A stretch of 32,000 nt of DNA. Source: Delftia acidovorans NBRC 14950 (GTDB taxonomy: Bacteria; Pseudomonadota; Gammaproteobacteria; Burkholderiales; Burkholderiaceae_C). Where the stretch lies: positions 240,001 through 272,000 of the forward strand of contig NZ_BCZP01000009.1 in NCBI RefSeq assembly GCF_001598795.1, read 5' to 3'. Numbering within the stretch: position 1 is the first letter of the stretch; each line of letters opens with the position of its first letter. Of the stretch, positions 9,600 to 27,184 are shown in pieces. Under the pieces are notes generated by a model. The model worked only from the letters and a program-made list of their open reading frames with translations. It searched no databases and was not told the DNA's origin. The translations under genes were made by a program, and so were the position numbers.

Positions 9600-9638
9600 A
9601 ACCGAAGGCCAGGCCGGCCGCATCCAATGCGACGCCTG

Positions 9639-11019: not shown

Positions 11020-11084
11020 GAAATGGAGCGAAGGGGGCGTTGCAGGAAATCCTTCGCCCAGTGTATCCGCGCCGCTGCCGGCTC

Positions 11085-11657: not shown

Positions 11658-11987
11658 TGCGATTCTCCAAACAGTTTTGTGAAGGGGACTGAAGCAGCGC
11701 ATTTTTGGGCTGCTGCTGGTACTACCCGCCATCGCATCGTTTGGATGCACCCCATGCAAAAATATTTTCGACAAATGCCAGCGCCAGACTCCATCAGACT
11801 GCGGTTGGTGACATTCTTGACCTGCAGCACCCGGGCCACCTCTCCCGAGGCGCGCGGCTCCCAGTAGGCCACGCGGCCGGTGAGCCAGGGCAGGGGAGAG
11901 AACTTGACGCCTGCTTCCCAACCATCATTGATGGAGGGCCTGAGGTTGCGATCCTGCGTGCGGCAGGCGTCGATGCCCGAGCCGATC

Positions 11988-12935: not shown

Positions 12936-12986
12936 TGGAAGTACCGGCAGATGGACGAGATGGGCGTCAGGGATGGCGCATTATCT

Positions 12987-13013
12987 GGCCCAACCGGCCC
13001 AACCGGCCCAACC
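12987..13013. repeat. Tandem 9-mer (ggcccaacc) x3 plus a partial fourth unit
   Basis: Read directly: ggcccaacc ggcccaacc ggcccaacc ggcacc. It lies 52 nt upstream of the DyP start codon (minus strand), in intergenic DNA. Confidence 0.85.
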
Positions 13014-13029
13014 GGCACCAGGAGCAACA

Positions 13030-13350
13030 TCACGGACGGTTTCGCCAGATCCTCACTCCCATTTTTTCGGCATCTTCCCGGTACTCCTGGATTTTCTGCT
13101 TCAGGTACTCCTGCAGCGGCCTGCCGACCAGGGAGTAGGGGTACAGGTCGAAGTTCTCCAGAAGTGCCATATAGCCAGGAAGGCCCATCGCCTTTTGCAA
13201 GGTCTCGGACCAGTAGCGTATTGCCGATGGAGGCGTGCCTGCCGCCATATAGAGACCCCTGACGGTCATCTGGGTCACATCGACGCCTTGCTCCGTTGCG
13301 GTCGGGATGTGCGCGAGTTTTCCGGGTACGCGGATAATCGCATCGGGATT
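13030..13350 (-). pseudogene. C-terminal fragment of a Bug/TctC-family periplasmic tricarboxylate-binding protein
   Basis: The in-frame translation PDAIIRVPGKLAHIPTATEQGVDVTQMTVRGLYMAAGTPPSAIRYWSETLQKAM...LQEYLKQKIQEYREDAEKMG matches the last ~105 aa of Bug proteins (...PT..EqG......w.G...p.GTP...). An in-frame stop at 13351-13353 removes the rest. Degraded upstream pieces may extend to about 13600. Confidence 0.6.
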
Positions 13351-13665
13351 TCAAGAGTAAATCATGCGGTGCGAAGTGTTCGATTTACGGCTGACTGCAT
13401 CGACGCATCCCTGTACCGTGCGCGGCCATGGATACACCGTCGTTTCGCAGCCAGCACATGCCAGTTCGCCCTTCCCAGGAGCTCCCGTTCTTAGGGCGTG
13501 ATCCGCTGGACCATGGCTGTGCGATCGCTGGGCTATGTCGAGTAACGTCTGCATGGTCGCCCTCTGCGCTAGCAGAACTTCGCCAGCCACGACGGTCAGC
13601 CATTGCCGAAGTAGTTCAGTTACGGTCGGTGAACTTAGCCTTCACGTCTTACGTGACTGAGCGGG

Positions 13666-14202
13666 TCAAGCACGAGCACTTATAACCAGCGCTTCAAGAT
13701 CAAGTAGAAATGACCTGATTTGTGACTCGTTCTCGGGTAGGCATAGAAACTTCACTGCGTCTTCCGGGGATTTCCCAATGAGCGGGATACGCAAAAACAG
13801 ATGTTCAAGAAAATTGCTGCTTACGGTCGAAAGTACCAGCCTCAGCGAAGCCAACATATCGTCACCTCGGTGCGATGCATGTACCAAGGCAATCGGCTTG
13901 CCGATCACTTCGACGCGTGAAACCAACCAGTCGATTGCATTCTTGAGGCCGCCGGGAATTGCACGGATGTATTCGGGGCTCGAGATGATGATGCAATCGT
14001 GTGCGCAGACAATTTCCAGGAATTCACGCACGGCCATGGGCGTTCTCTCCCCTTGCGCATCCGGCGAGAAAACGGGTAGTGCCTGGAGACCATGAAAAAC
14101 TGAGACATCAATGCCCAGCGGCGCCAGGTTTTTCATGGTTTGCAACAACGTCGTATTCGTGGATGCTTCGCGCGTACTGCCTGAAATAGCCAGGATTTTC
14201 AT
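13666..14202 (-). CDS. NADPH-dependent FMN reductase family flavoprotein
   Basis: MKILAISGSTREASTNTTLL...IIISSPEYIRAIPGGLKNAIDWL is the classic FMN_red pattern. AAAGAGGA lies upstream. The gene is markedly AT-richer than its neighbours. Its ATG overlaps the stop of the upstream MFS gene (ATGA at 14199-14202). Confidence 0.85.
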   Translation of the reverse strand: MKILAISGSTREASTNTTLLQTMKNLAPLGIDVSVFHGLQALPVFSPDAQGERTPMAVREFLEIVCAHDCIIISSPEYIRAIPGGLKNAIDWLVSRVEVIGKPIALVHASHRGDDMLASLRLVLSTVSSNFLEHLFLRIPLIGKSPEDAVKFLCLPENESQIRSFLLDLEALVISARA

Positions 14203-15398
14203 GATGTCCTCTTTGCTTGCCAAGCATCGGCCATGCCGGGCCGGCGTCCGGACCATGGCAGGCAGGCGCACAGCGCGATCAGGCCCAGCACCAATACCGC
14301 GCCTCCAAGCACGCCGAGGCCCGTACCGAAGGCCGCGCTCACGCCCATCGCCACCAGCGCTGCGCTGCCGATCTGACAGAACCCGACCAGCCCCGATGCA
14401 GTGGCCGCATGCCCGTGTTCGCTGGCGATGGCCCCGGACACGCCCAGCGACAGCGACGAGCCATTGGAGAGACTGACCAAGCACATCGGCAGCACCACGG
14501 CTGCCGCGCCCTGCAGCCCCGATTCCACCACGGCCGCGAATGCCACGCCGCCAAGCACGAAGCACACGACGCCGGCAAAGAGGATGCGGTCGTAGGGCCA
14601 GCGATCAAGCAGCTGCCTGGCAAGCAGGTTCGCGCCGATGATGCCCGCCGTCAGCGGCAGGTACAGCCAGCCGCTTTGTTCCTCGCTCAGCCCTTGGCGC
14701 GCAAAAAGAAACGGCGACTGGGTCAGGTAGACGAACCAGGCGCAATAGATCGCGCAGACCACCAGCGTATAGCGGCGAAAAATCCGGTCCCGCAGAACAT
14801 GACTGAAGCCAGCAAAGGGCGCGGTGCGGGTACGGGCGGCAGAGGGAAGCGTTTCCGGCAGCCACTTCATCACCATCAGCAGAGCCACGACGCCAAACGC
14901 AGCGACGAACAGGAAGTCAGACCGCCAGCCGAAAGCCGCAGCCAGGTGCCCGCCGATGGCAGGCGCCAGGGCGGGCGACAGCGACACCAGCGGGTAGATC
15001 ACCGCATAGACCTTGGCAGAGGTACGTTTGTCGCAGGTGTCGGCGATCAGTGCCCGGCCCACGACCAGGCCCGCAGCCGCGCCGACCGCTTGCAGCATGC
15101 GCCACGCCAGGAAACCGTTGTAGCTGGCGGAGATGGCGCAGCCCACCGAGCCGACGATGTAGAGAGCGATGCCAGCCAGCAGCACGGGCTTGCGGCCATT
15201 GCGATCCGACAGCGGGCCGTAGGCCAGCTGGGCAATTGCCAGTGCCAGCAGGTAGAACGAGACGGTCTGCGGCATCTGCCAGTCGGCAACGCCAAACTCC
15301 GTGGCCATGCCCGGCATGGCGGGCAGATAGACGTCCGACGCGATCAGGCCGAAGGCACTGAGCATGGCGACGGTCAAGGTGAAAGATAAGCGAGGCAT
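14199..15398 (-). CDS. MFS efflux transporter, Bcr/CflA drug-resistance subfamily
   Basis: SDVYLPAMPGMATEFG, LAYGPLSDRNGRKPVLLAG and 12-TM hydrophobic periodicity. The start at 15398 (MPRLSF...) is preferred, with an alternative ATG at 15461. Confidence 0.85.
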   Translation of the reverse strand: MPRLSFTLTVAMLSAFGLIASDVYLPAMPGMATEFGVADWQMPQTVSFYLLALAIAQLAYGPLSDRNGRKPVLLAGIALYIVGSVGCAISASYNGFLAWRMLQAVGAAAGLVVGRALIADTCDKRTSAKVYAVIYPLVSLSPALAPAIGGHLAAAFGWRSDFLFVAAFGVVALLMVMKWLPETLPSAARTRTAPFAGFSHVLRDRIFRRYTLVVCAIYCAWFVYLTQSPFLFARQGLSEEQSGWLYLPLTAGIIGANLLARQLLDRWPYDRILFAGVVCFVLGGVAFAAVVESGLQGAAAVVLPMCLVSLSNGSSLSLGVSGAIASEHGHAATASGLVGFCQIGSAALVAMGVSAAFGTGLGVLGGAVLVLGLIALCACLPWSGRRPGMADAWQAKRTS

Positions 15399-15499
15399 GG
15401 CAGTTCCTGGCAGCCAGGCGAACGGGCTGCGCGTCAAGGGTTCAGAAGGGATGAGCGCCATGCTACGGAGCTGCCTTCAATGTGAAAATGCACAAAATA

Positions 15500-15514
15500 G
15501 CAGCCTATAGCTGC
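15500..15514. promoter_or_regulatory. Candidate LysR-type operator dyad in the divergent MFS/LysR promoter region
   Basis: gcagc-ctata-gctgc is a perfect 5-bp dyad inside a larger imperfect palindrome (aaatagcagcctatagctgcatattt). It lies 30 nt upstream of the LysR ATG in an AT-richer spacer. No binding data are available. Confidence 0.3.
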
Positions 15515-15543
15515 ATATTTGCAGTACGAGCAATGGGGCAGCG

Positions 15544-16413
15544 ATGAATTGGGATGACGTGCGGATATTCCTGGCAATCCACCGTGCAGGCACCCTGCGT
15601 GGGGCGGCTCAGCAACTGGCCATCGACCAGACCACGGTGGGCCGGCGCCTGGCCGGGCTGGAGCGGTCGCTGGGCAGCCGGCTGTTCCTGCGCACCACGG
15701 GCGGCCTGGTGCTGGCCGGAACCGGCCAGGAAGTGCTGCGCATGGCCGAAGACATGGAGCGCATGGCCGTCTCCTTCGAGCGCCGCGGCGAAGGTGCCGA
15801 TGCGCGTGTGGCCGGGGAGGTGCGTGTGACCACCACCGACGCCTTGGCGGTGGATTTCGTGGTTCCCGCCCTCGAACACCTGCGTGCCCGCCATCCCGAG
15901 GTGCGGGTGATCCTGAGCACCACGAGGCGCCAGCTCGATCTAGCGCGACGGGAAGCCGACATTGCTGTCCGCACCCTGCGGCCGGAGCAACCGGACCTGA
16001 TCGTTCGCCAACTCGGCTGCTGGGAAGTGGGCTTGTACGCTACCGAAGGCTATCTGGCAAAAAATGGGGAACCGCAGCCCGGAAAAGGCTTTGCAGACCA
16101 CGACATCGCGCTCTACCAGGAGGGTGTGACCGGCCGGCAGGACGACACGCTGGCAGGTGAATCCAGGGCACAGGGTCGCATAGTTGCCGAACTGGATTCG
16201 AGCCTGATGCTTGCGACCTTCGTGCGCGCTGGCCTGGCCCTAGGCGAATTACCCGAATACGTGGCCCGACGCGACCCCACGCTGGTCAGGATGTGGCCGC
16301 AGTGCCAGCGGGCCAAGCCCTACGAGGCGTGGTTGGTGTTGCACCAGGACCTGGCGCGCACGGCCAGGGTGCGTGTCGTAGTGGAGTCGATCACCGCGGC
16401 TTTCGGCGATTGA
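15544..16413 (+). CDS. LysR-family transcriptional regulator (divergent from the MFS pump)
   Basis: MNWDDVRIFLAIHRAGTLRGAAQQLAIDQTTVGRRLAGLERSLGSRLFLR is a canonical LysR wHTH. A substrate-binding domain follows. Confidence 0.9.
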   Translation: MNWDDVRIFLAIHRAGTLRGAAQQLAIDQTTVGRRLAGLERSLGSRLFLRTTGGLVLAGTGQEVLRMAEDMERMAVSFERRGEGADARVAGEVRVTTTDALAVDFVVPALEHLRARHPEVRVILSTTRRQLDLARREADIAVRTLRPEQPDLIVRQLGCWEVGLYATEGYLAKNGEPQPGKGFADHDIALYQEGVTGRQDDTLAGESRAQGRIVAELDSSLMLATFVRAGLALGELPEYVARRDPTLVRMWPQCQRAKPYEAWLVLHQDLARTARVRVVVESITAAFGD

Positions 16414-16526
16414 AAGGCAGACATGTGCAAGCCACATATTTGATTTGGGTGGCGACGGCCGAGAGGCGATAAGGACGAGCAGCGTTTCATCTTCGAACAA
16501 TGAACTGAGCTGCGGGCAGTTCAGAT

Positions 16527-17655
16527 GTGAGCACCGAGGTGAGTGCTACGACCTTGGTCGTGGCCAAGCGCTTGGCGGATTCGGTGCGCGAATGGATCAA
16601 GCGCAATGAGTCCGATGAGGCTGTACCAGGGGACTCGAAGAACGATCGGCTATTCGACACCTGGCAGGACCATGGCGTCATCGACCTGAACCCGGCTACC
16701 GGGCAGGCTATCTGGCATGTGACAGTGCAAGGAGAGGCATCCGAAGCTGCGGCAGATCGAGGAGGTTATGAGCACGACCTGGCCATGCTGCGATTTCCCT
16801 TGGCCAAGGTCTTTTCGCACGAGAGCAAGTATCCGGCGCCCATGCAAGGCAGATTGGTCCTGCGGCAAAAACGCAAGGATGAGGCCGGTGAGGGCGCTGC
16901 CTCACAGCAGGCCGTGCAGCTGCAGATTCCTGCGGCAGGTTCTGGTGGTAAGGAGGATGCGGCAGGCCATGCACCCGAAGTTGCAGCATTACCAGCCAGT
17001 GCTCGCGCGCCTGCAGCTGCTCCCAAGGTGCCCAGCAAGCAGGAATTGAAGCTTGCGGCAGTCATGCGTGAACCGGCATTCAGGGCGCCACCTGGTACGG
17101 CAAAGCGGCCTGCGGCGAAATCCGAACGCGGAACCGGCGATGCGACCGAAGAAAGGCCCACGGCCGCCGAAGCCGGCGCGGGCCAGGGAGGAGGGCGGTG
17201 CGATGCGCGAGCAATCATCGGAAGCTGCCGCAGGCCTGGACGAGGCCCCGGCTTCGCCAGAGCCTCCAGCACCGCCTACCGCCCAAATTCTTTCATCCGA
17301 AACTGCCGCAATACCCACTGAGGCGGCCATGACACGCACGCCTGTATCCGCGGCAACGAAGCGCCATATGAGCGTAGCTGCGGAGTTTCGGAGCTTGAGC
17401 GACGAACTCGATGACTTGCCACCGGTCGTGGTGCGTTCCAGGACGGAGCCGCAGGCTTCACGCGCGGATGAGCCCCAGCCGGTGCTGCTCTTGCAGCAAC
17501 GACTCAAGATCGAAGGCCAGGAAAGGCCTGCGCACGAGCCCAGCGAGTTGGCGTTGGACTTCATGCGGTGGGTACAGCAGGGCTTGGTCGATCGTGCGTG
17601 GTTCTGGTGGAGCTTGGTCTGGAGTGGCTTGCGCAATCCTCATCAGGTGTTCTGA
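16527..17655 (+). pseudogene. Remnant of an ICE relaxase (MOBH / PFL_4751-type TraI): N-terminally truncated, frameshifted, C-terminally truncated
   Basis: Two overlapping ORFs in frames 0 and +1 (16527-17321 and 17053-17655). The first has ...LFDTWQDHGVIDLNPATGQAIWHVTV...LAMLRFPLAKVF. From memory this resembles the region after the HD domain of ICEclc/PFGI-1-type TraI (...VLQDHG.L.P..DGKAIW..TV...). An Ala/Pro/Glu-rich linker follows. The second ORF ends with LALDFMRWVQQGLVDR, which resembles the very start of the TraI_2_C domain, then terminates. The only start is GTG. The HD-domain part is absent. Confidence 0.5.
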
Positions 17656-17826
17656 AAGCTTAGCGCTGGAGTCAACGAAGAAACTTCTGAACATAACGTC
17701 CGCATAGTTGGTGAATGCTACCGATATGAGTCGCTTTAAAGCTCACTTTTCTGGCCGTCATTTGATTGATACGATGTATATTATGTTAAATAACAAACGC
17801 AGATAACGGCCTGAAAACCAAGTCAT

Positions 17827-17843
17827 GGCACTCCTCCAGTGCC
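17827..17843 (-). terminator. Possible intrinsic terminator downstream of the ATPase gene (could act bidirectionally)
   Basis: ggcact-cctcc-agtgcc is a 6-bp stem. On the minus strand it is followed by atgacttggttttc, and on the plus strand by ttgcctgcttcgttttc. It lies 16 nt after the stop codon of the 732-aa gene, at the edge of an AT-rich spacer. The stem is short. Confidence 0.35.
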
Positions 17844-17858
17844 TTGCCTGCTTCGTTT

Positions 17859-20057
17859 TCAGCTGTTCAAGGCGGTTTCCAGGCCTTCAAGCTCCTGCTT
17901 CAGCAAAAGCGCAGTTTCCTGTGGCTCGAACTGACGCTGCAGCAGCGGGATGGTGAAGACGTAGCTTGCATCGTGCACGCCGTGGGTTTCATCGCGGCGC
18001 AGGACGTAGGCCAGTTGCAGGCGCGCCAGGGACCGGCGCAAGGCCTGGGCCTGGCCGGTGGCGCCGTGGGACTGGACCAGGGCGTCGAGTGCGGTCAGGC
18101 TGGTCTGTCCTTGCTGGGCCGTGTGATAGACGGCGATGCGGTCCAGGCGGCAGGCCTGTTCGTCGGTGCTCAAGCGGCCCCATCCCACCAGCGCGTCCTG
18201 CACGGGCTGGGATGCCATGGCCTGGCGCAGGTGGCGTTCTTCGATGACGCGTTCGTCGGGCCCCAGGGCTTCCAGGCATTCCTGGCAGAGGATGGCGACC
18301 AGGTTGGCGCGCCTGCCGCTGGCCTCTATCAGCCGCTCGGCCAGAGCGTCGTTGGCAAAGCCCAGGCGCAGCCTGCGCAGCGGTTCGGTGGCCAGGGCGT
18401 GACATGCCGCTGGCTCCAATCCACCAATGGCCAGGATTTCGCCGAAGTTGCGCAGCGGCGATTGGTAGTCGAGCAGCGCTGCCGCGTACAGATCCCAGAA
18501 TCCCGCCAGCATGAACCAGCAACGGCCCTCCTCGCTCAGCGCGCGCAAGGCGCTGAGCTGGGGGTAGCCATTGCGGGCTTCGTCGCGGAAGAACAGGTCG
18601 GCCTCGTCGATCAGCAGGTACAGCCGCCTGCCCTGCGACTGCTTTTGCAGGTGTTCGATGATGGCCTCCAGCGGTGTTTCCACGGGAAGGCCGAACTGCG
18701 TGGCCAGGCGCGGCGTAAGGCGGTGGTCGCGCAGCGAGATGTAGTGGCAGGCGATGGCCGGATGCTCCTGCAGCCGCCGCTGCACGGCCTTGAGCAGGCT
18801 GCTTTTGCCGAGCTGGCGTCCTCCCACGACCAGGTAGTTGGCCGGTTCGCGGTTGAGCACGCGGGCCAGCAGGCGCTCGCGGCCAAAGAAAACGTCCTCG
18901 CGCGTCACGCCGCCGCGCGTCTGGTAGGGCGATATGCGCGTGACCTGCAGCTGCGTGGCCAGCAGCCGCAGCAGCACCTGGTCCGGAGCGCCGCCCAGCA
19001 GCCATTCGGTCTGCCCCGGGCTGTCCAGCAGCACGTGCAGGTTGGCGCGGTCCTGGGCATGGCGCTGCAGCAGCGGCATGGGCGACTGGGGATGGTGCGA
19101 GCTCACGATGAGCACCACATCGCCGCCGGTTTGCAGCAGGCGCAGCTGGCGCACGAGTTCGCCCTCTTCCAGCTCCGCTGGGGGCGCATAGACCAGGCAA
19201 CGGCCCAGGGCGATGGGCAGCTCGGGCGGCAGCGTCCACTCGAACATGTCGCCGGGCACGGGCCACTCGCCTTGCGCCGGTTTGCAGACGGCGGACAGGC
19301 GTTCGGCCAGCGCCCGCACGCGGGCGCCTGGGCTTGCGCCGGCAAGGCGCAGGGCCCGCTGCCAGTCCGGCGGGCGTATGCCCGCAGCGCGCAAGACGGC
19401 GGAACGGCGGCCGGTGAGCTGCAGCAGCCGGTCCAGCTGGGGCAGATGCTGGTAGGGCTTGCGGCGCAGGCGCTCGGGCTTGAGCTGTGCCGGGCCTATC
19501 AGCGGATGGCGCACCAGCCACAGCAGGGCCAGGCAGCCAAAGACCAGTGCGCTGGTCCAGATGACGCTGCGCAGCCATCCAAAGGGTTCATGCTCGGGCT
19601 GGCCCGGCGAGGGGCTGCAGTTCAGCGGCAGGTAGCGCGGCGGAGTCGGAGGCAGGCCGCCCTGGCAGCTCCAGTCCCAGCGTTGCCTGTCCAGTTGCAG
19701 CAGGACCTGGGTTCCGGCGAGCACGCCCATCTGGCTGTCGCGCACCACGTCCGCCTGCAGCACGAATGGACTGGGCGAGCTCATGCGCACGCGTGGTTCG
19801 GCAATGTCCGGCGCCACGCTGGCCAGGTCCTGCGGCCAGCTTTCATGCTGGCGCACATAGTCCATCAGGGCCAGGCGCCACAGGATGATTTCGTTCCAGA
19901 CCCGGCCCGAGCTTTCCGCGCCCTGCAGGCTGCTGCGGGTGACGGGGTTGTAGCGGGGCAGCAGGATGGCCGTGCCGATGAACAGCGTGACCAAGGCGAG
20001 CAGCGCGGCGCGCCACCAGGATCTGGGCAGTTGCACAAGCCGACCCAGGCCGCTCAT
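17859..20057 (-). CDS. Two-TM membrane protein with a pilin-like Cys-pair ectodomain and a cytoplasmic Arch_ATPase/ORC-like AAA+ ATPase (uncharacterised architecture)
   Basis: 732 aa. TM1 is residues ~14-33 (WWRAALLALVTLFIGTAILL). The ectodomain is ~34-160 and ends ...RWDWSC(131)QGGLPPTPPRYLPLNC(147). TM2 is ~161-182 (WLRSVIWTSALVFGCLALLWLV). It has FFGRERLL-x-...VVGGRQLGKSS (Walker A, nt 18801-18824) and GRRLYLLIDEAD (Walker B, nt 18597-18617). Amino-acid composition is protein-like, whereas the antisense 781-aa ORF looks like a shadow. Confidence 0.8.
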   Translation of the reverse strand: MSGLGRLVQLPRSWWRAALLALVTLFIGTAILLPRYNPVTRSSLQGAESSGRVWNEIILWRLALMDYVRQHESWPQDLASVAPDIAEPRVRMSSPSPFVLQADVVRDSQMGVLAGTQVLLQLDRQRWDWSCQGGLPPTPPRYLPLNCSPSPGQPEHEPFGWLRSVIWTSALVFGCLALLWLVRHPLIGPAQLKPERLRRKPYQHLPQLDRLLQLTGRRSAVLRAAGIRPPDWQRALRLAGASPGARVRALAERLSAVCKPAQGEWPVPGDMFEWTLPPELPIALGRCLVYAPPAELEEGELVRQLRLLQTGGDVVLIVSSHHPQSPMPLLQRHAQDRANLHVLLDSPGQTEWLLGGAPDQVLLRLLATQLQVTRISPYQTRGGVTREDVFFGRERLLARVLNREPANYLVVGGRQLGKSSLLKAVQRRLQEHPAIACHYISLRDHRLTPRLATQFGLPVETPLEAIIEHLQKQSQGRRLYLLIDEADLFFRDEARNGYPQLSALRALSEEGRCWFMLAGFWDLYAAALLDYQSPLRNFGEILAIGGLEPAACHALATEPLRRLRLGFANDALAERLIEASGRRANLVAILCQECLEALGPDERVIEERHLRQAMASQPVQDALVGWGRLSTDEQACRLDRIAVYHTAQQGQTSLTALDALVQSHGATGQAQALRRSLARLQLAYVLRRDETHGVHDASYVFTIPLLQRQFEPQETALLLKQELEGLETALNS

Positions 20058-21304
20058 GCCTGCAGCACCGCCACGGCGGCTTCGCGGGCAATGTCGCAGC
20101 GCCAGTGCAGATGGGCACCCTCACCTGCTCCGCGCACCTGCAGCAGATTGCCCCAGAACAGGCGCCGCAGCACGGCATCCTGCAGATAGGGGCGTGCACG
20201 GCCCAGCGATGCCGCATCCACCAGCCCGCGCAGTTGCTCGCGCGTGGCAGGTTCCTGCGCCAGGGGCAGCAAGGTCTGCCACAGGCGGGCGCTGGCCACC
20301 AGATGGGCGCGCAGCAGGGGCGAGTGCACGGAAGCGACGCCCACGCCCTGCTCCATCAGCCATTGCAGCGCTTCCTCGAAAAGCGCGGGATGCCCGCCCG
20401 TCAGCGCCTGCAATGCCTCGATGACCTCGGCCGGCCAGGCCGTGCCGGGCCAGCGCTGGTGCGCCATCAGGGCCAGGTCTTCCAGCGTGGGATCGGGCCA
20501 GTGGGCCACCTGGCCGATGTTGAGCAGCGACAGGTCACCGCTGCGGTACTTGAGGTCGGCCAGGGCCTCGCTGCCGCACAGCAGCAGGTGCAGGCGGCCG
20601 CTGTGCATTTCGCTGAGGCTGCGCAGAATGCCGGCCAGTGTCTCGCGCAGCTGCGCCGTGCCCTGCTCGAAGCGGCTGACCAGGCAGAACAGCCGGCCGC
20701 CGGCCAGCAGGCGCTTTTCCAGCAGGGCCTCGAATTCGTAGTCCGAGCCCACTTCGCCCAGCCCGCATTGCCGGCCCAGGGCCGCAAAGTAGTCGGCCGC
20801 AGCCGTGCTCACGCTGTAGGGCGGCTGGATGTGCAACACCGCCTCGGCGCCATACTGGGCGCGGGCGCGCAGCAGCAGTTCCTGGCGAAACGGGGGCTGC
20901 CCCCAGTGCGCGGGCGACAGCAGCATGGTGATGGCATAGGGCCGGGCATGGGCCAGCTGGGCGAAAAGCCGGTCCATGAAGCCTGCAAAAGGCTGGGCGC
21001 CAGCGGCGGCGGCCTGCAGCGGAAACTCCGTGGCAAAGCCAGCGGCGGAGAACAGGCGATTGGTCTCCGCCTCCGTCAGACGCAGGTACTGGGCGCAGGC
21101 GGCCAGCCGGTCGCGCGAGCGCGGATTGGGCAGGGAAACCCCATTCCTCCAGTTGTTGACGGCTTCCCGGCTCAGCCCGATCTCGGTGGCCACGCCCGAG
21201 GCGCTGGCGCGGATGCGGCGCATGTACAGCCCCAGCAAATGGCCGAAATCCTCGTGAACGCCTGGTGCCACGGCAGCTCCCTGTTCAATGGCGGTGGGCT
21301 GCAT
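20054..21304 (-). CDS. XRE-type HTH protein fused to a degenerate (P-loop-less) STAND/AAA-like domain
   Basis: 416 aa. The HTH is FGHLLGLYMRRIRASASGVATEIGLSREAVNNWRNGVSLP. The central region aligns by eye with the neighbour's ATPase core but has SPAHWGQPP instead of GGRQLGKSS and LVSRFE instead of LIDEAD. A TGGHPALFEEAL lid-like motif is present. Its stop overlaps the start of the 732-aa gene (ATGA at 20054-20057). Confidence 0.8.
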   Translation of the reverse strand: MQPTAIEQGAAVAPGVHEDFGHLLGLYMRRIRASASGVATEIGLSREAVNNWRNGVSLPNPRSRDRLAACAQYLRLTEAETNRLFSAAGFATEFPLQAAAAGAQPFAGFMDRLFAQLAHARPYAITMLLSPAHWGQPPFRQELLLRARAQYGAEAVLHIQPPYSVSTAAADYFAALGRQCGLGEVGSDYEFEALLEKRLLAGGRLFCLVSRFEQGTAQLRETLAGILRSLSEMHSGRLHLLLCGSEALADLKYRSGDLSLLNIGQVAHWPDPTLEDLALMAHQRWPGTAWPAEVIEALQALTGGHPALFEEALQWLMEQGVGVASVHSPLLRAHLVASARLWQTLLPLAQEPATREQLRGLVDAASLGRARPYLQDAVLRRLFWGNLLQVRGAGEGAHLHWRCDIAREAAVAVLQA

Positions 21305-21451
21305 CAGCGACGGCTCCGCTCAGGAAAACAGCGCCTGCTGGCGCAGATCCATCCTGCCGGGGCCATGGTCCGTATCCTCATCCTGTTCACCCTCTCCTGG
21401 GATTCAGCTGGTCTTGTGCAATTTGTTTCATTTTGCCGAGCGCGGATTGTC

Positions 21452-22273
21452 TCAGGATGCGGCATCGCCGCCACCCTGCCCCGCAAACTCCCGTCGCGCG
21501 CCGGCCATGCGGTACAGAGGCAGCACCACCGCCAGCACCAATCCCAAAGCCAGCCAGAACCACAGGCCCTTGCCTCTGAAGGCCAGGGCCGCAATGACGG
21601 TGAAGGCCACGGCCTCGCACAGCCCGCGAAAGCCGGCCCGCAGCATGAACAGCCCCACGATGCCCTGCACGGGCGACACGCCGCTCTTGCGCAGGCTGGC
21701 CATGGTGTCCAGCAGGGCCTGCACGGATTCCTGGGCCTGGCGGTCACGCTCCTGGTCCCGCTCGCGCAGCCGGGTGATGGCCATGGGCTGGGCCGGATTG
21801 GTCAGGGCGGTGCCGTCGGCGCCCTCTTCCTGGCCGGGCTGCGGATAGACCTCGCCATCCGTATCGACCAGCACCTGGCGCTCCGGGTAACGGGACAGCC
21901 AGGCGTGGTGGCTGACCCATTGGCCAGCATCGAAGTGGTAGCGCTCGCTCTCGCCCACCTGGTCGTAGAAGACATGCAGCACCGCCGCCTGCAGGCCGTG
22001 CTGGAACAGCGTCTCCAGCAATCGCCAGGGCATGCCGGCCGTGGTGCGGGTGTCAAAGCCCAGCTCCAGGTGCTGGGGATGGCCCAGGGCGCTGGCATTG
22101 GCCCAGTCGTCATCCCACAGCGCGGACCGGTCCAGGGCGGGGTCCAGCTCATGGATCCAGCGCTCGGCCTGCTCCCAGGACTGCCGGGCCAAGTACTGGC
22201 AGATCAGTTGCACGCGGCGCAGCTGCAGGGGCGTATCGAAGAAAAGATAGAGGTGATGGACGTTGCTGGACAT
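21452..22273 (-). CDS. Hypothetical membrane-anchored protein (soluble N-domain, charged linker, two C-terminal TM helices)
   Basis: The frame is open from 22504, but residues before MSSNVHHLYLFFDTPLQL (ATG at 22273) are Arg/Cys/Gly-rich and look non-coding. The C-terminus has GIVGLFMLRAGFRGLCEAVAFTVIAALAF and LWFWLALGLVLAVVLPLY. No family was recognised and there is no clear SD. Confidence 0.55.
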   Translation of the reverse strand: MSSNVHHLYLFFDTPLQLRRVQLICQYLARQSWEQAERWIHELDPALDRSALWDDDWANASALGHPQHLELGFDTRTTAGMPWRLLETLFQHGLQAAVLHVFYDQVGESERYHFDAGQWVSHHAWLSRYPERQVLVDTDGEVYPQPGQEEGADGTALTNPAQPMAITRLRERDQERDRQAQESVQALLDTMASLRKSGVSPVQGIVGLFMLRAGFRGLCEAVAFTVIAALAFRGKGLWFWLALGLVLAVVLPLYRMAGARREFAGQGGGDAAS

Positions 22274-22478
22274 GGCGGGCCTGAGGCGTTTGCAGGAATG
22301 CCGCGATTGTTCAATTGCAGCCGCCAGCCGGCCCTCCCAGGCCTGTCCAGCAGGCGGCTGGCAGGCGCTCCCACCGGTTGACATTCTGTCCACTGCAAGA
22401 AGCGGGATGCAGGCGCTGCGGCGGCGCCCTAGACTGCGGCAATTGCCCACAGCGCCCATACCGCCAACCGCGCCCGCC

Positions 22479-23210
22479 ATGCACAACCTCCGTCTTTTCG
22501 ACAACGAAGCTTGCGAATCCGCCCCGCCCGGCCACTGGACGCAGATGGAGCACCAGCTCGATGAGCAAGGCTGCGCGCGCCTGCCCGGCCTGCTGGATGC
22601 GCAGCAGTGCCGCGACCTGGCCGCTCTTTACGCAAGGGAGGACGGCTTTCGCTCCCGCATCGTCATGGCACGCCACGGTTTCGGGCGCGGCGAGTACCAA
22701 TATTTCGACTACCCCTTGCCACCGCTGCTGCAGCGCCTGCGCGAGCAGCTGTATCTGCGCCTGGCGCCGGTGGCCAATCTCTGGAACCAGCGCATGGGGC
22801 TGGAGGTGCGCTATCCGGACCGGCTGCAGGACTTCCTGGCGCGCTGCCACGCGCAGGGCCAGTTGCGGCCCACGCCGCTCATCCTTCAATACGGTGCGGG
22901 CGACTACAACTGCCTGCACCAGGATGTCTATGGAGAGCATGTGTTTCCGCTGCAGGTGGTGCTGCTGCTGTCGCGGCCCGCGCGGGACTTCACGGGTGGC
23001 GAGTTCGTCATCACCCAGGCCGATGGCGACCGGCAGCGGGCCGATGTGATGGCACTGGACCAGGGCGATGCGCTGGTCCTGGCCGTGCGCCACCGGCCCG
23101 TGCCCGGGCGGCGCACCGGCTACCGCCGCGTGGCCATGCGCCATGGGGTCAGCCGCATCCACAGCGGCCATCGCCATACCGTGGGGCTGATCTTTCATGA
23201 CGCACTTTGA
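22479..23210 (+). CDS. 2OG-Fe(II) oxygenase superfamily protein (COG3826 / 'Oxygenase-NA'-like, alkB-associated)
   Basis: MHNLRLFDNE... It has an HxD in CLHQDVYGEHVFPLQVVLLLSRPARDFTGGEFV, the distal His in MRHGVSRI, and Arg in GHRHTVGLIFHD. The family assignment is from memory of alkB-linked oxygenases. Confidence 0.75.
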   Translation: MHNLRLFDNEACESAPPGHWTQMEHQLDEQGCARLPGLLDAQQCRDLAALYAREDGFRSRIVMARHGFGRGEYQYFDYPLPPLLQRLREQLYLRLAPVANLWNQRMGLEVRYPDRLQDFLARCHAQGQLRPTPLILQYGAGDYNCLHQDVYGEHVFPLQVVLLLSRPARDFTGGEFVITQADGDRQRADVMALDQGDALVLAVRHRPVPGRRTGYRRVAMRHGVSRIHSGHRHTVGLIFHDAL

Positions 23211-23222
23211 TGGATGGCCGGT

Positions 23223-23873
23223 ATGAGCACGCTGGATCTTTTCGCCGATGAACATCCCACCGGGGCCGAATCCATAGGTCCGCAATCCGTGGTGCTGCGC
23301 GGCCATGCCCTGCCCCATGCCGTGCAGTTGCTGGAGGCGGTCGAAGGCATTGCGGCGCGGGCGCCGCTGCGCCATCTGGTTACGCCGGGCGGCTTCACCA
23401 TGTCGGTGGCCATGACCAACTGCGGCGCGCTGGGCTGGACCAGCGACAGGCGCGGCTACCGCTACAGCGCCATCGACCCACTCAGCGGCCAGCCCTGGCC
23501 GGCCATGCCGGCCGTGTTTGTCCGGCTGGCGGGCGAGGCGGCCGCTGCGGCGGGGTTCGATGGCTTTGTGCCCGATGCCTGCCTCATCAACCAGTACCTG
23601 CCCGGCACCCGGCTTTCCCTGCACCAGGACCGCGACGAACACGACCTGGGCGCGCCCATTGTCTCGGTGTCCCTGGGCATGCCCGCCACGTTTCTGTTTG
23701 GAGGACTGGCGCGGACAGACAGCACGGCCAGGGTGCCGCTGCAGCATGGCGACGTGGTGGTCTGGGGCGGTGTGGATCGGCTGCGCCACCACGGCGTGTT
23801 GCCGCTCAAGGACCAGCCTCACCCGCTGCTGGGCGGGCGGCGCATCAATCTCACTTTTCGCAAGGCGGGCTGA
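23223..23873 (+). CDS. alkB: Alpha-ketoglutarate-dependent DNA/RNA alkylation-repair dioxygenase AlkB
   Basis: MSTLDLFADE..., GWTSDRRGYRYS, PWPAMP, ACLINQYLPGTRLSLHQDRDE (HxD), VSVSLG, WGG..RLRHHGV and RINLTFRKAG match E. coli AlkB blocks. An alternative ATG lies at 23214. Confidence 0.9.
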   Translation: MSTLDLFADEHPTGAESIGPQSVVLRGHALPHAVQLLEAVEGIAARAPLRHLVTPGGFTMSVAMTNCGALGWTSDRRGYRYSAIDPLSGQPWPAMPAVFVRLAGEAAAAAGFDGFVPDACLINQYLPGTRLSLHQDRDEHDLGAPIVSVSLGMPATFLFGGLARTDSTARVPLQHGDVVVWGGVDRLRHHGVLPLKDQPHPLLGGRRINLTFRKAG

Positions 23874-24575
23874 ATGGTTGGACGGTCTGAAATGGATAGG
23901 CTCAACGGCCAGGATCGCTTCGCCCGCCTGGATTGGGCGCGGATTGCCGCTGAGCTCGATGCCGAAGGCCATGCCCGGCTGCCGCAGCTGCTGACTGCGG
24001 ATGAAAGCCGCGCCTTGGCCCGCGAGGCGGCAGCCGCGTCTGGCCTGCCGCCCTGCGTGCAGGCATGGCGCCCGGTGCTGTACGGGCATCTGCTGGCCCT
24101 GGCCAACCGCTGGCGCGAACACATGGGCATGATGCCTGGGTTGCCAGGCTGCTTCGAGGATTTCATGCGTCCGGGCCGGCAAGCAGGCCAAACGCAGCCA
24201 CAGCCACATCTGCTGCGCGTGCCGCAAGCGGGTCATGCCCCGCTGCGTTCATACAGCGAAGGTGCGGCGGTGTTTCCGCTGCAGCTGGTGCTGCTGCTGT
24301 CCCGGCCGGGCCAGGATTTCGAGGGCGGCGAATTCGTGATGACCGAGCAGCGCCCGCGCATGCAATCGCGCCCCATGGTGCTGCCGCTGGGCCTGGGGGA
24401 TGCGGCCATCATCGCCACGGGGCCGCGCCCGGTGCGCGGTGCGGCGGGCTTTTACCGCGTGCATCTGCGGCATGCCATCAGCCGCGTTCACCGTGGCGAG
24501 TGGCTGGGTCTGGAGCTGCTTTTGCACGACGTGCCCCAGGCGCCAAAGGCTCTGCAAACGGACCGCTGGCTATAA
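23874..24575 (+). CDS. Degenerate paralog of the 22479-23210 oxygenase (predicted catalytically inactive)
   Basis: It shares ARLPxLL and VFPLQLVLLLSRPGQDFEGGEFVMTEQ with the upstream paralog. However, it has PLRSYSEGAA where the paralog has CLHQDVYGEH (His and Asp both lost). It also has GEWLGLELLLHD where the paralog has GHRHTVGLIFHD. Its ATG directly abuts the alkB stop. Confidence 0.7.
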   Translation: MVGRSEMDRLNGQDRFARLDWARIAAELDAEGHARLPQLLTADESRALAREAAAASGLPPCVQAWRPVLYGHLLALANRWREHMGMMPGLPGCFEDFMRPGRQAGQTQPQPHLLRVPQAGHAPLRSYSEGAAVFPLQLVLLLSRPGQDFEGGEFVMTEQRPRMQSRPMVLPLGLGDAAIIATGPRPVRGAAGFYRVHLRHAISRVHRGEWLGLELLLHDVPQAPKALQTDRWL

Positions 24576-24576
24576 T
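24571..24576 (+). promoter_or_regulatory. Possible -10 box for the riboswitch/receptor transcript
   Basis: A perfect TATAAT overlaps the stop codon of the preceding gene, about 25-50 nt upstream of the riboswitch core. No convincing -35 hexamer was found. Confidence 0.3.
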
Positions 24577-24599
24577 GCCGCGCCTGCAAAGGCATCCGT

Positions 24600-24895
24600 G
24601 CAACAGGTGTCCGCATGCCAGCCATGGGGATGAAACGGGAACAAGGTGACTGCCAGCAAATGCTTTTTGCGCTGCCGGCACAGGCCTTGGCTGCCCCCGC
24701 AACGGTAAACAAGTCAAGGCGCTCCATGCCTGTCCCGCCAGTCTCCGCAACCCTGCGGAGGGGCGATGACAGGCTGTCACTGGTTCATGGCGTGGTCTGC
24801 AACATGCAGCTTTTCGCGGGTGGATTGGGAAGACGGGGCGCTGGGCGGAAGGCATGTCCTTGCGCCGCTTGTGAGCCCGGAGACCGGCCTGCTGC
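24600..24895 (+). promoter_or_regulatory. Cobalamin (B12) riboswitch
   Basis: Conserved core elements appear in the right order: gggaacaaggtga (24637-24649), gctgcccccgcaacggtaa (24690-24708), gtcactgg (24776-24783), gggaagacgg (24827-24836), and the B12-box-like gagcccggagaccggcc (24873-24889). It is located in the 5' leader of a TonB-dependent receptor/ABC uptake operon. The outer boundaries are approximate. Confidence 0.8.
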
Positions 24896-24901
24896 GTTTC
24901 G

Positions 24902-24925
24902 CGCCTGCTGTGCAGGCGTTTTCTT
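24902..24925 (+). terminator. Candidate riboswitch expression-platform terminator (attenuator)
   Basis: cgcctgc-tgt-gcaggcg is a 7-bp GC stem followed by ttttctt. It sits immediately 3' of the B12 box and about 100 nt before the receptor start codon. Confidence 0.5.
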
Positions 24926-25027
24926 GACTGTCTGCGGGGTGCGGATGGCAACGTCCTGCGCCCTTTCCTCCCACGCTGGCTGGAGAGGTGGCAGTGCCTT
25001 GCTTTCGCATCAGACGGTCGAAGACCG

Positions 25028-27184
25028 ATGTTCGAAATGCATTCTTCCTTTTCCAGGGTTTCCAGCGCTCGCGCTGCCCAGTCCCTTTCCGTGCGGCTGA
25101 GCCCGCTGGCCCTGGCCTGCGCCTTCATCTGCCTGCCGGCGCAGGCTCAAACACAAACGCCCACGCCAACGCCCCCATCAACCGCCCTGCCCGAGGTCCA
25201 GGTCACCGGCCAGGCCGAACGCATCGGCCAGCAACTGGCCCAGCCTGCGCGCTCTGCCAGCCATACCGGCGTCTCCAACCAGGAAGTGCCGGCCAGCGTG
25301 GACGGCGTCTCTGCCGAGCAGATGCAGGAGCGCGGCGACTACGCCCTGGTGGACGCCGTCACGCGCACCGTGGGCCTGACCTCCAGCAGCACGCCGGGCA
25401 ACGGCGGCCTGGCCTTCAGCAGCCGCGGCTTTGCGGGTGTCAATTCCGTGGGCGTGGCCGAAGACGGCATGGTGCTGGGCGTGGCCGCCGGCACCACGGC
25501 GTATCCGGGTGACAGCTGGGGCTACGAGCGCATCGAAGTGCTGCGCGGCCCGGCCTCGCTGATGTATGGCAGCGGCACCATGGGCGCCACGGTCAACGCC
25601 TTCCGCAAGCAGCCCAGCCGCACCAGCTCGGCCGAGGTGCTGGTGGGCGCGGGCACGGACGACACGCTGCGCCTGGGCCTGGGCGTGACCGGCGCCCTGG
25701 GCGCCTATGCCAGCTACCGTATCGACAGCTACACCGCCCGCAGCGCAGGCGAGCGCGATCTGGACCAGTCGCGCAACGGCAAGTTCATGAGCACGCTGCG
25801 CTTGGAGCCCACGAGCGACCTGCAGATCGACCTGATCGCCGACCGCAGCGTGCAAAAGCCCAGCCGCTACTGGGGCACGCCGGGCCTGAGCGGCAAGGTG
25901 GTGGAGTCGCTGCGCGACCGCAATTACAACGCCGAAGACAGCGTGCTGCGCTATGCCGACGAGCGCCTGCGCGCCAAGGTGCAATGGAAGGCCAATGACT
26001 GGCTGACGGTGCGCAACGAGCTGTACCACGTGAAGTCCGACCGCCACTGGCGCAACATCGAGGCCTACGCGCTCAACCCCGCCACCTGGACCGTGGGCCG
26101 CTCCGACTACCTGGAAATCCTGCACGACCTGGAGCAGACCGGCAACCGCCTGGGCCTGAACGTGGACCGGGGCTCGCACAAGATCGCCATGGGCTGGGAG
26201 GCCGCGCGCATCAACCTGCGGCTGTCCAACAACTCGCCCTATGGTGGCTCGTCCACGGTCTCGGCCTGGGATCCCGTGCATGGCAGCTGGGCCAGCCCCG
26301 ATCTCACCGCCGCCAAGACAGAAACCGGCGTGACCCAGCATGCCCTGTACCTGGAAGATGCCTGGCGCATCAGCAACCGCTGGCTGGCCATGGCCGGCCT
26401 GCGCCGCGATGTCTACGACTTTGCCAGCCACTCGCTGGTGGGCGGCACGGATTTCAACAAGACGCTGGCCGCCACCTCCTGGCGCCTGGGCCTGACCTAT
26501 GAGCTGGCCCGCAACACCCATGTCTATGGGCAGATCAGCTCGGGACACGATCCCGTCAACAGCCTGGTGTCGCTGAACCTGGCCAACACGGCTTACAAGC
26601 TGAGCAAGGGCCGCCAGGCCGAGATCGGCATCAAGCAGCAGGTGGCTGGCGGGCGCGGCGAATGGACGCTGGCCGTGTTCGACATCAAGAAGGACAACAT
26701 CATCACGCGCGACCCGGACCGCCCGGCCATCTCCATTCAGGGCGGCAGCCAGTCCTCGCGCGGGGCGGAAGCCACCGCCACCTTCCAGGCCACGCCCGCC
26801 CTGCGCCTGGAGGGCAACCTGTCCTATGTGGACGCCCAGTTCGACAAGCTCATCGAGGCCGGCGGCAACCGCGCAGGCAACCGTCCGCAGAACGTGGCCA
26901 AGACCACGGCCAACCTTTGGGGCCACTACCGCGTGGGCGCCTGGCAGGCCTCGCTGGGCCTGCGCTACGTGGGTGACCGCTTTGGCAACAACGCCAATAC
27001 CGTGAACCTGCCCGCCTACACCGTGGCCGACGCCGCGCTGAGCTGGCAGGTGGACCCGCGCACCACCCTGAGCCTGATCGGCCGCAACCTGGCCGACAGG
27101 GTCTATGTGGGATCGAGCTACGGCAGCCAGTTCCTGGTCGGGCAAGGCCGCCGCTTCGAGATCGCGGCGCATATCCGGTTCTGA
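25028..27184 (+). CDS. TonB-dependent outer-membrane receptor, cobalamin-riboswitch controlled (BtuB-like by context)
   Basis: 718 aa. It has a signal peptide ending PAQAQ, a plug region (LPEVQVTGQAE, IEVLRGPASLMYGSG), a long beta-barrel and a terminal Phe (...FEIAAHIRF). An alternative start lies at 25037. Confidence 0.9.
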   Translation: MFEMHSSFSRVSSARAAQSLSVRLSPLALACAFICLPAQAQTQTPTPTPPSTALPEVQVTGQAERIGQQLAQPARSASHTGVSNQEVPASVDGVSAEQMQERGDYALVDAVTRTVGLTSSSTPGNGGLAFSSRGFAGVNSVGVAEDGMVLGVAAGTTAYPGDSWGYERIEVLRGPASLMYGSGTMGATVNAFRKQPSRTSSAEVLVGAGTDDTLRLGLGVTGALGAYASYRIDSYTARSAGERDLDQSRNGKFMSTLRLEPTSDLQIDLIADRSVQKPSRYWGTPGLSGKVVESLRDRNYNAEDSVLRYADERLRAKVQWKANDWLTVRNELYHVKSDRHWRNIEAYALNPATWTVGRSDYLEILHDLEQTGNRLGLNVDRGSHKIAMGWEAARINLRLSNNSPYGGSSTVSAWDPVHGSWASPDLTAAKTETGVTQHALYLEDAWRISNRWLAMAGLRRDVYDFASHSLVGGTDFNKTLAATSWRLGLTYELARNTHVYGQISSGHDPVNSLVSLNLANTAYKLSKGRQAEIGIKQQVAGGRGEWTLAVFDIKKDNIITRDPDRPAISIQGGSQSSRGAEATATFQATPALRLEGNLSYVDAQFDKLIEAGGNRAGNRPQNVAKTTANLWGHYRVGAWQASLGLRYVGDRFGNNANTVNLPAYTVADAALSWQVDPRTTLSLIGRNLADRVYVGSSYGSQFLVGQGRRFEIAAHIRF

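Follow-up and report, generated by a model that had tools for sequence, protein, structure and literature searches.

A 32,000-nucleotide stretch of the Delftia acidovorans NBRC 14950 assembly (6.6 Mb, 100% complete), called the window in what follows, carries two overlapping minus-strand genes, one for a 416-amino acid (aa) protein with a helix-turn-helix (HTH) domain and one for a 732-aa membrane nucleoside triphosphatase (NTPase). On balance, this locus is probably a two-protein, often three-protein, transmembrane (TM) signalling switch of the STAND type with an HTH output. We document the domain composition and predicted topology features of the two proteins, an obligate linkage of their genes and a modular exchange of sensor and output among their relatives. 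The original prediction, made from the letters of the sequence, was of two minus-strand genes sharing ATGA, and both open reading frames and their overlap were verified by coordinate. The same is true of the motifs behind its domain readings, namely TM helix, pilin-like domain, TM helix and P-loop NTPase for the 732-aa protein, and HTH, ATPase-like core without Walker A or B and then GGHP for the 416-aa protein. We refer to the latter as the adaptor and to its core as a dead, or inactive, STAND module.

Homologues number in the hundreds for each protein, the closest being those of Delftia lacustris and D. tsuruhatensis at ~90% identity. In a scan that took one genome per species, relatives of the NTPase were found in at least 174 species genomes. 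Eighty species loci were kept, from Comamonadaceae, Oxalobacteraceae, Pseudomonas and Lysobacterales, and the adaptor gene lies directly upstream of the NTPase gene in all 80. The two genes are therefore conserved neighbours elsewhere, as had been expected of them, and with hundreds of homologues behind this adjacency the pair is not a product of chance. The overlap of the two genes is also seen at Pseudomonas, Massilia and Acidovorax loci, and across loci the adaptor is more conserved (47-76% identity) than the NTPase (46-64%). Hosts among the Comamonadaceae are Acidovorax, Delftia, Hydrogenophaga, Simplicispira and others; the remaining ones include Undibacterium, Massilia, an Azoarcus metagenome-assembled genome, Pseudomonas (the nitroreducens group and others) and Lysobacterales (Tahibacter and a Stenotrophomonas). 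A third gene precedes the pair in 45 of the 80 loci. Its product, annotated as 273 aa in Delftia, has 34% identity to its Pseudomonas counterpart and gave no Pfam, PHROG or Atlas lead. Clustering the open reading frames of the 80 loci revealed no further conserved neighbour beyond the adaptor and this third gene, and no Pfam family of two-component or extracytoplasmic function systems (histidine kinase, receiver, sigma or anti-sigma factor) was found in either protein of the pair or in the third.

The 732-aa protein has the marks of an AAA+ STAND or ORC/Cdc6-like ATPase. Both sequence patterns of this group are present, GxxxxGK[ST] as the Walker A motif GGRQLGKSS (18798-18824, with K418) and hhhhDE as the Walker B motif LLIDEAD (18597-18617), each invariant in 34 homologues, and the alpha/beta core is followed by a helical lid and a winged helix. 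Over residues 386-589, Pfam returned AAA_22 (33.8 bits, cut-off 27) and, as a marginal pass, nSTAND1 (PF20703; 29.0 bits against a cut-off of 27.1, E 1.1e-6), the latter being matched by 14 of the 34 homologues at E <= 0.1. An AlphaFold2 (AF2) model built on the 34 homologues reached a mean predicted local distance difference test score (pLDDT) of 79. In its N-terminal part, a TM helix (12-32) runs into a long helix (41-71), followed by four strands (90-133) and a second TM helix (160-183); its cytoplasmic part consists of a helical bundle (194-253), an alpha/beta domain (257-370), a linker (371-394), the ATPase core, the lid and the winged helix. The NTPase fold that had been anticipated at residues ~385-600 is thus predicted by AF2. 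The fold matches of the ATPase core are Orc1/Cdc6, 2qen, MuB, TnsC, nucleotide-binding leucine-rich repeat receptors (NLRs), Avs3, Avs4 and Avs5, and this domain filled the lists when the whole 732-residue model was used for fold searches (Foldseek, VIA-align wide). A whole-protein profile of the NTPase family gave no match among PDB sequences.

The region between the second TM helix and the core is conserved as well, with a mean column identity of 58% for residues 186-392 against 62% for the whole protein in the 34 homologues. The linker, which is modelled with low confidence, carries TRISPYQTRGG, the most conserved motif of the family, and the S, P, Y, Q and T of this motif are retained by distant relatives. 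Searched with a profile of residues 186-392, the PDB sequences gave nothing below E 0.4, and an Atlas feature search of the same residues gave one unnamed cluster at 0.80 and no other lead.

Between the two TM helices lies a domain that resembles type IV pilins. When the family profile of residues 1-185 was compared with the PilA of this genome, hhalign aligned 111 columns (probability 86.6%, E 4.5e-6), beginning at the proline of helix alpha1 and ending with the C-terminal disulfide loop (WxC...YLPxNC). Seven of the 34 homologues match Pfam Pilin (PF00114; best E 2.6e-7), the window protein itself having no match to it at E <= 1, and the top three PDB sequences found with the 1-185 profile are type IV pilins, at marginal E values of 0.025, 0.025 and 0.21. 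Cys131 and Cys147 are invariant among homologues. Of all parts of the protein, this domain, a long helix and four strands in the AF2 model, evolves fastest (mean column identity 41%). The N-terminus, MSGLGRLVQLPRSWWRAALL, does not contain a class III signal peptide (Gly-1, Phe+1, Glu+5), nor any G/FTLIE or G/FxxxE motif; a canonical PilA, with QQGFTLIELM, is present in the genome. Since the G/F...E5 leader is missing, the domain is expected to be neither processed nor polymerised, and since a second TM helix follows, it should stay tethered in the inner membrane, facing the periplasm. From the hydropathy and the basic stretch after the second TM helix, we infer that the N-terminus is cytoplasmic, that residues 34-150 are periplasmic and that the chain re-enters the cytoplasm through the second TM helix. 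What the 732-aa protein carries thus appears to be a membrane-tethered pilin-like ectodomain and not a polymerising pilin.

Such a domain raises the question of whether the pair serves a type IV pilus or a type II secretion machine as a structural or assembly accessory. The pilin-like domain would dock at the base of the pilus, the NTPase would power or check assembly, and the HTH protein would autoregulate the operon. The pilin-like ectodomain, with an equivalent of the pilin proline P22 and a C-terminal disulfide loop, and the canonical PilA of the genome fit such a role, and the host genera are typically piliated beta- and gamma-proteobacteria. We nevertheless consider this role improbable. 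The pair was never beside pil or gsp genes in the neighbourhoods read, and its presence in only 5 of the 201 sampled genera of the family argues against a part of a core machine. In addition, the same constant modules appear to work with WD40 sensors or with no ectodomain in relatives described below, and NTPases of the ORC/STAND type are switches, not secretion motors of the PilB/PilT type.

The AF2 model of the adaptor (mean pLDDT 86.7, predicted template modelling score 0.79) consists of a five-helix HTH domain (20-87), a five-stranded alpha/beta core (107-285), a helical lid and a C-terminal winged helix. Foldseek matched it to ORC2 (1w5t, E 4e-8), MuB (TM-score 0.60) and 2qen (0.50), with further matches to NRC NLRs, CED-4 and Avs3. 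At the positions of Walker A and Walker B stand the invariant sequences HWGQPP (within 20888-20920) and VSRFEQG (within 20660-20692), with GGHP further on. Two Pfam families were matched under their cut-offs, AAA_35 over residues 258-364 (E 4e-5) and HTH_31 (E 8e-5, 23.2 bits, cut-off 27). The HTH assignment is supported by a match to the PHROG 638 transcriptional regulator (E 0.003) and by the HTH_3 matches of adaptor relatives (up to 3.5e-9). A whole-protein profile of the adaptor family yielded only marginal matches among PDB sequences.

The modular character of the pair became apparent in its relatives. At E <= 1e-3, an exhaustive search with the adaptor profile gave 611 clusters, and at E <= 1e-10 it gave 296. 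For most of them, the match is confined to the dead-STAND part (profile positions ~90-400), and the N-terminus ahead of it differs. In a set of 100 representatives, Pfam identified TIR_2 in 49, SEFIR in 4, CHAT in 3, HTH_3 in 6 and HTH_31 in 3, together with single cases of EAD2, Trypsin_2, Metallophos, caspase, ParA-like and ABC-like ATPases. Neighbours were read only where contigs were long enough, those of a caspase-type (P0293) and a distant HTH-type (P0251) member being too short for the partner NTPase. The next gene after a TIR-type dead-STAND gene encodes an 801-aa nSTAND1 protein, and a Metallophos-type dead-STAND gene overlaps the gene for a 1363-aa protein. BLASTP aligned the window NTPase, from its second TM helix to its C-terminus, with these two proteins at 38% (E 1e-113) and 41% identity (E 4e-109), respectively, and the juxtamembrane module is 38-41% identical in the WD40- and beta-rich-type relatives. 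This span defines a constant unit of TM helix, helical bundle, alpha/beta domain, ISPYQT motif, NTPase and winged helix. Scanning metagenomes yielded further pairs of a TIR/dead-STAND protein and, after it, an NTPase of 970-1535 aa; several of these NTPases begin with a hydrophobic signal-like segment and WD40 repeats (propellers), after which comes the TM helix. Their WD40 sensors are predicted to be exported, with the same out-then-in topology as the pilin-like domain. In a low-GC metagenomic variant (L166:1056-5583), an HTH/dead-STAND adaptor is followed by an opposite-strand 382-aa gene and then by a 565-aa NTPase in which the TM helix is present and the ectodomain is absent. One TIR-type relative (L093:1172-3646) adjoins an opposite-strand gene for an 824-aa DUF4062 protein; a 2026 preprint reportedly describes DUF4062 as an NADase domain of bacterial immunity.

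The window pair is the HTH/pilin variant of a wider binary family made of a dead-STAND output protein and a membrane NTPase. The original prediction that it matches no named system stood in so far as the two-protein architecture is not accounted for by any PADLOC, NCBIfam or Pfam model, but the pair is not an orphan, as it has kin in this wider family. PADLOC-DB v2 gave no system-level match for the pair, only PDC-S01 on the P-loop (E 1e-3, 15.9 bits), and in the TIR/WD40 relatives its matches were confined to TIR, phosphoesterase or repeat parts and never extended to the constant modules. The wider family is not named by the tools and literature at hand and is apparently undescribed.

The outputs of these relatives bring in a different explanation, an abortive-infection anti-phage system. 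The HTH/dead-STAND protein would sense invading nucleic acid and the membrane NTPase would be the effector, its TM helices damaging the membrane once it oligomerises and its pilin-like domain serving only to anchor or localise it. This is consistent with the TIR, SEFIR, CHAT, trypsin and EAD2 domains that most adaptor relatives carry, which are typical of conflict systems, with the N-terminal position of the variable domain, the usual effector position in STAND defence proteins, and with the likeness of the NTPase core to Avs3, Avs4 and Avs5. The patchy taxonomic distribution and the DUF4062 gene adjoining the TIR-type relative point in the same direction, and a role in sensing nucleic acids has been put forward for inactive STAND modules (PMC8195603, PMC12839542). 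We still find this explanation unlikely, as PADLOC gave nothing beyond the PDC-S01 match and the six neighbourhoods read contain housekeeping or transport genes, not defence islands. Both proteins, the HTH above all, are strongly conserved (mean column identity 62%), unlike fast-evolving sensors. Furthermore, the conserved, disulfide-bonded and probably periplasmic domain, swapped for exported WD40 repeats in relatives, suggests a sensor and not a pore.

The preferred reading, a transmembrane STAND switch with an HTH output, leads to the following model. A periplasmic ligand or perturbation would act on the pilin-like domain. The cue might come from the pilin pool, from the machinery of type IV pili or of type II secretion, or from a pilin binder such as the adsorption protein of a pilus-dependent phage; that the pilin mimic points to pilins, to pilus or secretion machinery or to pilus-binding phage proteins is a lead and not a finding. 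A change in the TM and juxtamembrane module would then relieve the autoinhibition of the NTPase, and its NTP-dependent oligomerisation, as for STAND and ORC proteins, would incorporate or recruit the dead-STAND adaptor. The output domain would thereby be brought into an active arrangement, and clustering or release of the HTH would alter transcription. In this clade, a transcriptional output would take the place of the NADase or protease outputs of the relatives.

A broader and distinctly more tentative idea is that of an undescribed class of STAND (NLR-like) receptors in bacteria, with the pair as a member, in which sensing takes place outside the cytoplasm and the activated receptor assembles with a dead-STAND adaptor that carries the output, mostly TIR and here an HTH. 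The sensor of such receptors might be a WD40 propeller, a beta-rich domain or a pilin mimic, TM-tethered in each case to the conserved transducer and NTPase. In the window pair, the pilin mimic might report on pilins or pilus-binding agents, conceivably on filamentous or other pilus-dependent phages, and the answer might be given by transcription rather than cell death. The logic of such a class would be analogous to signalling by a Toll-like receptor plus adaptor.

Several observations weigh against a signalling switch of this kind. Modelling argues only weakly for a direct binding of NTPase and adaptor. Complex prediction gave a median ipSAE score of 0.56 against 0.00 for the best control, with at least 83% of contacts shared among runs and a partner pLDDT of at least 79. 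In the calibration, the mark was reached by 58 of 80 solved complexes and by 2 of 110 mismatched pairs, but scores <=0.60 comprise only 7 of the 80 solved complexes plus both passing mismatches, and a pass of this kind could stem from the predictor having memorised the solved ORC and BrxC-BrxB complexes. Residues 186-370 form a module of unassigned fold that matched neither PDB sequences nor the Atlas, and the pilin alpha-beta roll is no more than a candidate fold for the ectodomain. Similarity between the two ATPase-like cores was weak in hhalign (probability 12%, E 0.0025), which aligned 132 columns at 29% identity between Walker B and the lid, so that the adaptor, described in the original prediction as an inactive paralogue of its neighbour, can be called one at the level of the fold, where Foldseek supports it, and only suggestively by sequence. 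A simple k-mer search (10-mers, one mismatch) across 20 diverse loci, each represented by the 400-bp upstream region of its adaptor gene, returned GC-rich noise and no shared operator, and scans of the window for promoters, terminators and inverted repeats stayed at chance level. RNA-library contigs from three studies of a ~98% identical strain span positions 17761-22600, covering all three genes, and one contig of 2.1 kb bridges the ATGA junction, yet contigs are no proof of transcription, strand or level, and DNA carry-over is possible. Finally, most relatives carry TIR or protease outputs typical of immunity, and for this reason the role could still be defence and not physiological signalling.

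The genomic setting of the pair differs from what had been supposed. A chromosomal dif (XerC/XerD) site, unique in the genome, lies at 17764-17791 on the plus strand (GATTGATACGA-TGTATA-TTATGTTAAAT), 68 bp past the stop codon of the NTPase gene and just ahead of the plateau and maximum of cumulative GC skew (~19-25 kb). The AT-rich junction that had been taken as a mark of accessory DNA is this site. Synteny with other Delftia genomes (92% identity over 17761-29066) ends exactly at dif; the contigs of RNA-library runs X10 and X12 leave the window match at 17761, at the dif site, and those of X11 do so at 17771, as expected if strains differ beyond dif. On the other side, a strain-specific 8.15-kb segment (9610-17760) abuts dif and replaces the CheW and methyl-accepting chemotaxis protein genes of other Delftia genomes. 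It contains genes for a flavin mononucleotide reductase, a major facilitator superfamily transporter and a LysR regulator, as well as unassigned open reading frames. Within it, a Comamonas aquatica plasmid has a mobH relaxase gene that positions ~16560-17590 resemble, at 70.5% identity over 24% of the query. This likeness is at the DNA level only, and the open reading frames at 16527-17655 have no Pfam or PHROG match. In related Delftia assemblies (L091:11290-18060; also L099 and L103), a filamentous prophage occupies the same dif, with a second dif-like copy flanking it. The prophage carries genes for a single-stranded DNA-binding protein, an RstA/G2P-like replication protein and Zot, and looks like a Xer-dependent integrated inovirus.

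The pair is located on the conserved side of this recombination hot spot and not inside a decayed integrative and conjugative element. Since it is on the syntenic side and the MobH remnant is on the variable side, across dif, adjacency to the relaxase is not evidence for accessory status, as the original prediction had it. The patchy spread of the pair nonetheless points to horizontal acquisition, and the HTH/pilin module presumably moves horizontally. The adaptor is carried by only 5 of the 201 genera sampled in the window's own family, one copy being split in three frames; this broken gene, in another genus (G030:C1:377603-378746), is probably a pseudogene. The flanks of the pair differ from genus to genus.

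With dif and its insertions so close, the pair could also be seen as a remnant or regulator of a mobile element, a target-selection AAA+ ATPase like TniB, TnsC or MuB with an HTH regulator beside the dif hot spot. Weak Pfam TniB matches in 13 of the 34 homologues, TnsC and MuB among the best structural matches of the ATPase core, and the MobH relaxase remnant (with, in related strains, the filamentous prophage) beyond the adjacent dif speak for this view, which we regard as very improbable. No transposase or integrase is linked to the pair in the 80 loci, and the reading as a transposition ATPase was rejected on the absence of a linked transposase. The Delftia pair is on the conserved side of dif, a dif site directly after the pair occurs only in the Delftia clade among the loci examined, and other genera have unrelated chromosomal contexts. 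Moreover, the membrane anchoring and the predicted periplasmic domain have no counterpart in transposition ATPases.

Some neighbouring genes were observed alongside. At 22263-24575 of the window, on the plus strand and divergent from the three-gene module, are three tandem 2-oxoglutarate-Fe(II) (2OG-Fe(II)) oxygenase genes (Oxygenase-NA, AlkB-like 2OG-FeII_Oxy_2 and Oxygenase-NA), an arrangement conserved in Delftia. Directly downstream of the pair, a Massilia locus (L005:10191-18157) has genes for three DUF4132 proteins of ~950-970 aa, and an Acidovorax locus (L007:10227-13365) has genes for two ankyrin-repeat proteins (faint Pfam matches); both sets are lineage-specific paralogous arrays. 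The coordinates of the pair, of its predicted domains and of the third gene are collected in Table 1.

Table 1. Positions in the window of the three genes and of the domains and motifs assigned to the pair
Feature	Positions	Strand	Basis or remark
Gene for the 732-aa membrane STAND NTPase (P0001)	17859..20057	-	Open reading frame; Pfam; AF2 mean pLDDT 79
Helical lid and winged-helix domain, residues 547-710	17928..18419	-	
AAA+ NTPase core, residues 390-546	18420..18890	-	Includes Walker A and Walker B
Linker motif TRISPYQTRG, residues 373-382	18912..18941	-	Invariant in 34 homologues; pLDDT 34-44
Juxtamembrane cytoplasmic module, residues 186-370	18948..19502	-	Helical bundle, then alpha/beta domain; AF2 secondary structure
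TM helix 2, residues 164-182	19512..19568	-	Hydropathy 2.13; AF2 helix 160-183; basic stretch after
Putative periplasmic pilin-like domain, residues 34-150	19608..19958	-	hhalign to PilA; Pfam Pilin in homologues
TM helix 1, residues 15-33	19959..20015	-	Hydropathy 2.04; AF2 helix 12-32; equivalent of pilin alpha1-N without prepilin motif
ATGA stop/start overlap of adaptor and NTPase genes	20054..20057	-	Junction reads GCATGAGC
Gene for the 416-aa HTH/inactive-STAND adaptor (P0002)	20054..21304	-	Open reading frame; AF2 model; 265 homologues
Adaptor lid (with GGHP) and C-terminal winged helix, residues 292-415	20060..20431	-	AF2 model; AAA_35
Inactive STAND/ORC-like alpha/beta core of adaptor, residues 107-285	20450..20986	-	Foldseek; invariant motifs
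XRE-like HTH of adaptor, residues 20-87	21044..21247	-	Nearly invariant across genera; five helices in model
Third gene, 273-aa protein with two C-terminal TM helices	21452..22273	-	Upstream of the pair, same strand

To our knowledge, every characterised bacterial immune receptor of the STAND/NLR-like kind senses its target inside the cytoplasm. If this family indeed links an extracytoplasmic sensor across the membrane to a STAND switch and to a separate dead paralogue that bears the output, it would represent a new bacterial way of perceiving envelope events and a new parallel to the transmembrane innate-immune receptors of animals. It would also give a function to a conserved pair of "hypothetical protein" and "AAA family ATPase" genes in at least 174 species genomes. 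Because its output would be transcription, the HTH/pilin variant would offer a non-lethal and tractable entry point, and it occurs in culturable Delftia, Acidovorax and Pseudomonas nitroreducens. A transmembrane STAND protein with an extracytoplasmic sensor and a dead-STAND adaptor was not found described in the open-access literature, the part of the literature to which this negative is limited.

Among known systems, MalT, AfsR/SARP and GutR are NTP-dependent STAND switches coupled to a DNA-binding domain, with a transcriptional output. The pair shares with them the coupling of a STAND switch to DNA binding. However, these regulators are single cytoplasmic chains with C-terminal sensor repeats, whereas in the window pair the active NTPase is embedded in the membrane, with a predicted periplasmic sensor, and a second protein, the dead paralogue, bears the DNA-binding domain. 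Regulators of this type have been cited as non-immune STANDs (PMC13581612). Avs and bNACHT proteins are close in the ATPase core, which is like that of Avs3, Avs4 and Avs5, and in the tripartite logic of sensor, NTPase and effector that the wider family follows. Nevertheless, Avs proteins are cytoplasmic single chains that sense phage proteins by C-terminal repeats, while the sensor here is N-terminal and, by prediction, extracytoplasmic, the effector is on a second protein, and the constant modules have no PADLOC model.

There is overlap between the wider binary family and two concepts of Kaur et al., iSTAND and nSTAND1 (PMC7159879, PMC8195603). The iSTAND module was defined on MoxR-vWA systems, of which it is the third component, and its N-terminal fusions are of the same kinds as those of the wider family (Kaur, Burroughs, Iyer, Aravind 2020; PMC7159879). 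Like it, the adaptor has a STAND-like module with eroded Walker A and B motifs, and relatives of the adaptor, although not the window protein, carry TIR, caspase/CHAT, trypsin, EAD2 and calcineurin-like phosphoesterase fusions. In contrast, the N-terminus of the window adaptor is an HTH and its partner is a membrane nSTAND1 NTPase. No MoxR-like gene was present within 6-10 kb in 161 loci (tblastn with the MoxR of this genome, 1e-5), nor was any AAA_3 or vWA family among the window neighbours. The adaptor module is also highly conserved, with its lid and winged helix retained in full, whereas the iSTANDs of MoxR-vWA systems have been described as fast-evolving, with a reduced helical bundle (PMC12839542).

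The nSTAND1 family was named by Kaur et al. in 2021 (PMC8195603), and the same work described a two-gene system of an active and an inactive STAND, nSTAND2 with GT4 or HEPN effectors, and took HTH domains in the effector positions of conflict systems as signs of transcriptional outputs (PMC8195603). As in the nSTAND2 pair, two STAND genes are adjacent here and one of them, with eroded NTP-binding motifs, bears the variable output, a hetero-oligomer having been proposed for nSTAND2 (PMC8195603). Unlike that pair, the window clade is nSTAND1 by Pfam, its active partner is transmembrane with an extracytoplasmic domain, and the outputs are HTH, TIR, caspase or phosphoesterase and not GT4 or HEPN. 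BrxC-BrxB of BREX is likewise an active ORC/Cdc6-like ATPase with an inactive STAND partner (PMC12839542), but BrxB has no helical bundle, BREX has no membrane or periplasmic domain, and no BREX family (PglZ, PglX or others) occurs among the neighbours scanned. The ectodomain, for its part, recalls type IV pilins (PilA, PF00114) in its alpha1-N helix with a conserved proline, its modelled long alpha1-C helix and beta-sheet and its C-terminal disulfide loop, whereas the 732-aa protein has neither a prepilin-peptidase site nor Glu5 and continues into a second TM helix and a 550-residue cytoplasmic extension. From these comparisons, we infer that the system is a STAND-based signalling or conflict variant whose sensor is transmembrane and mimics a pilin and whose output is an HTH.

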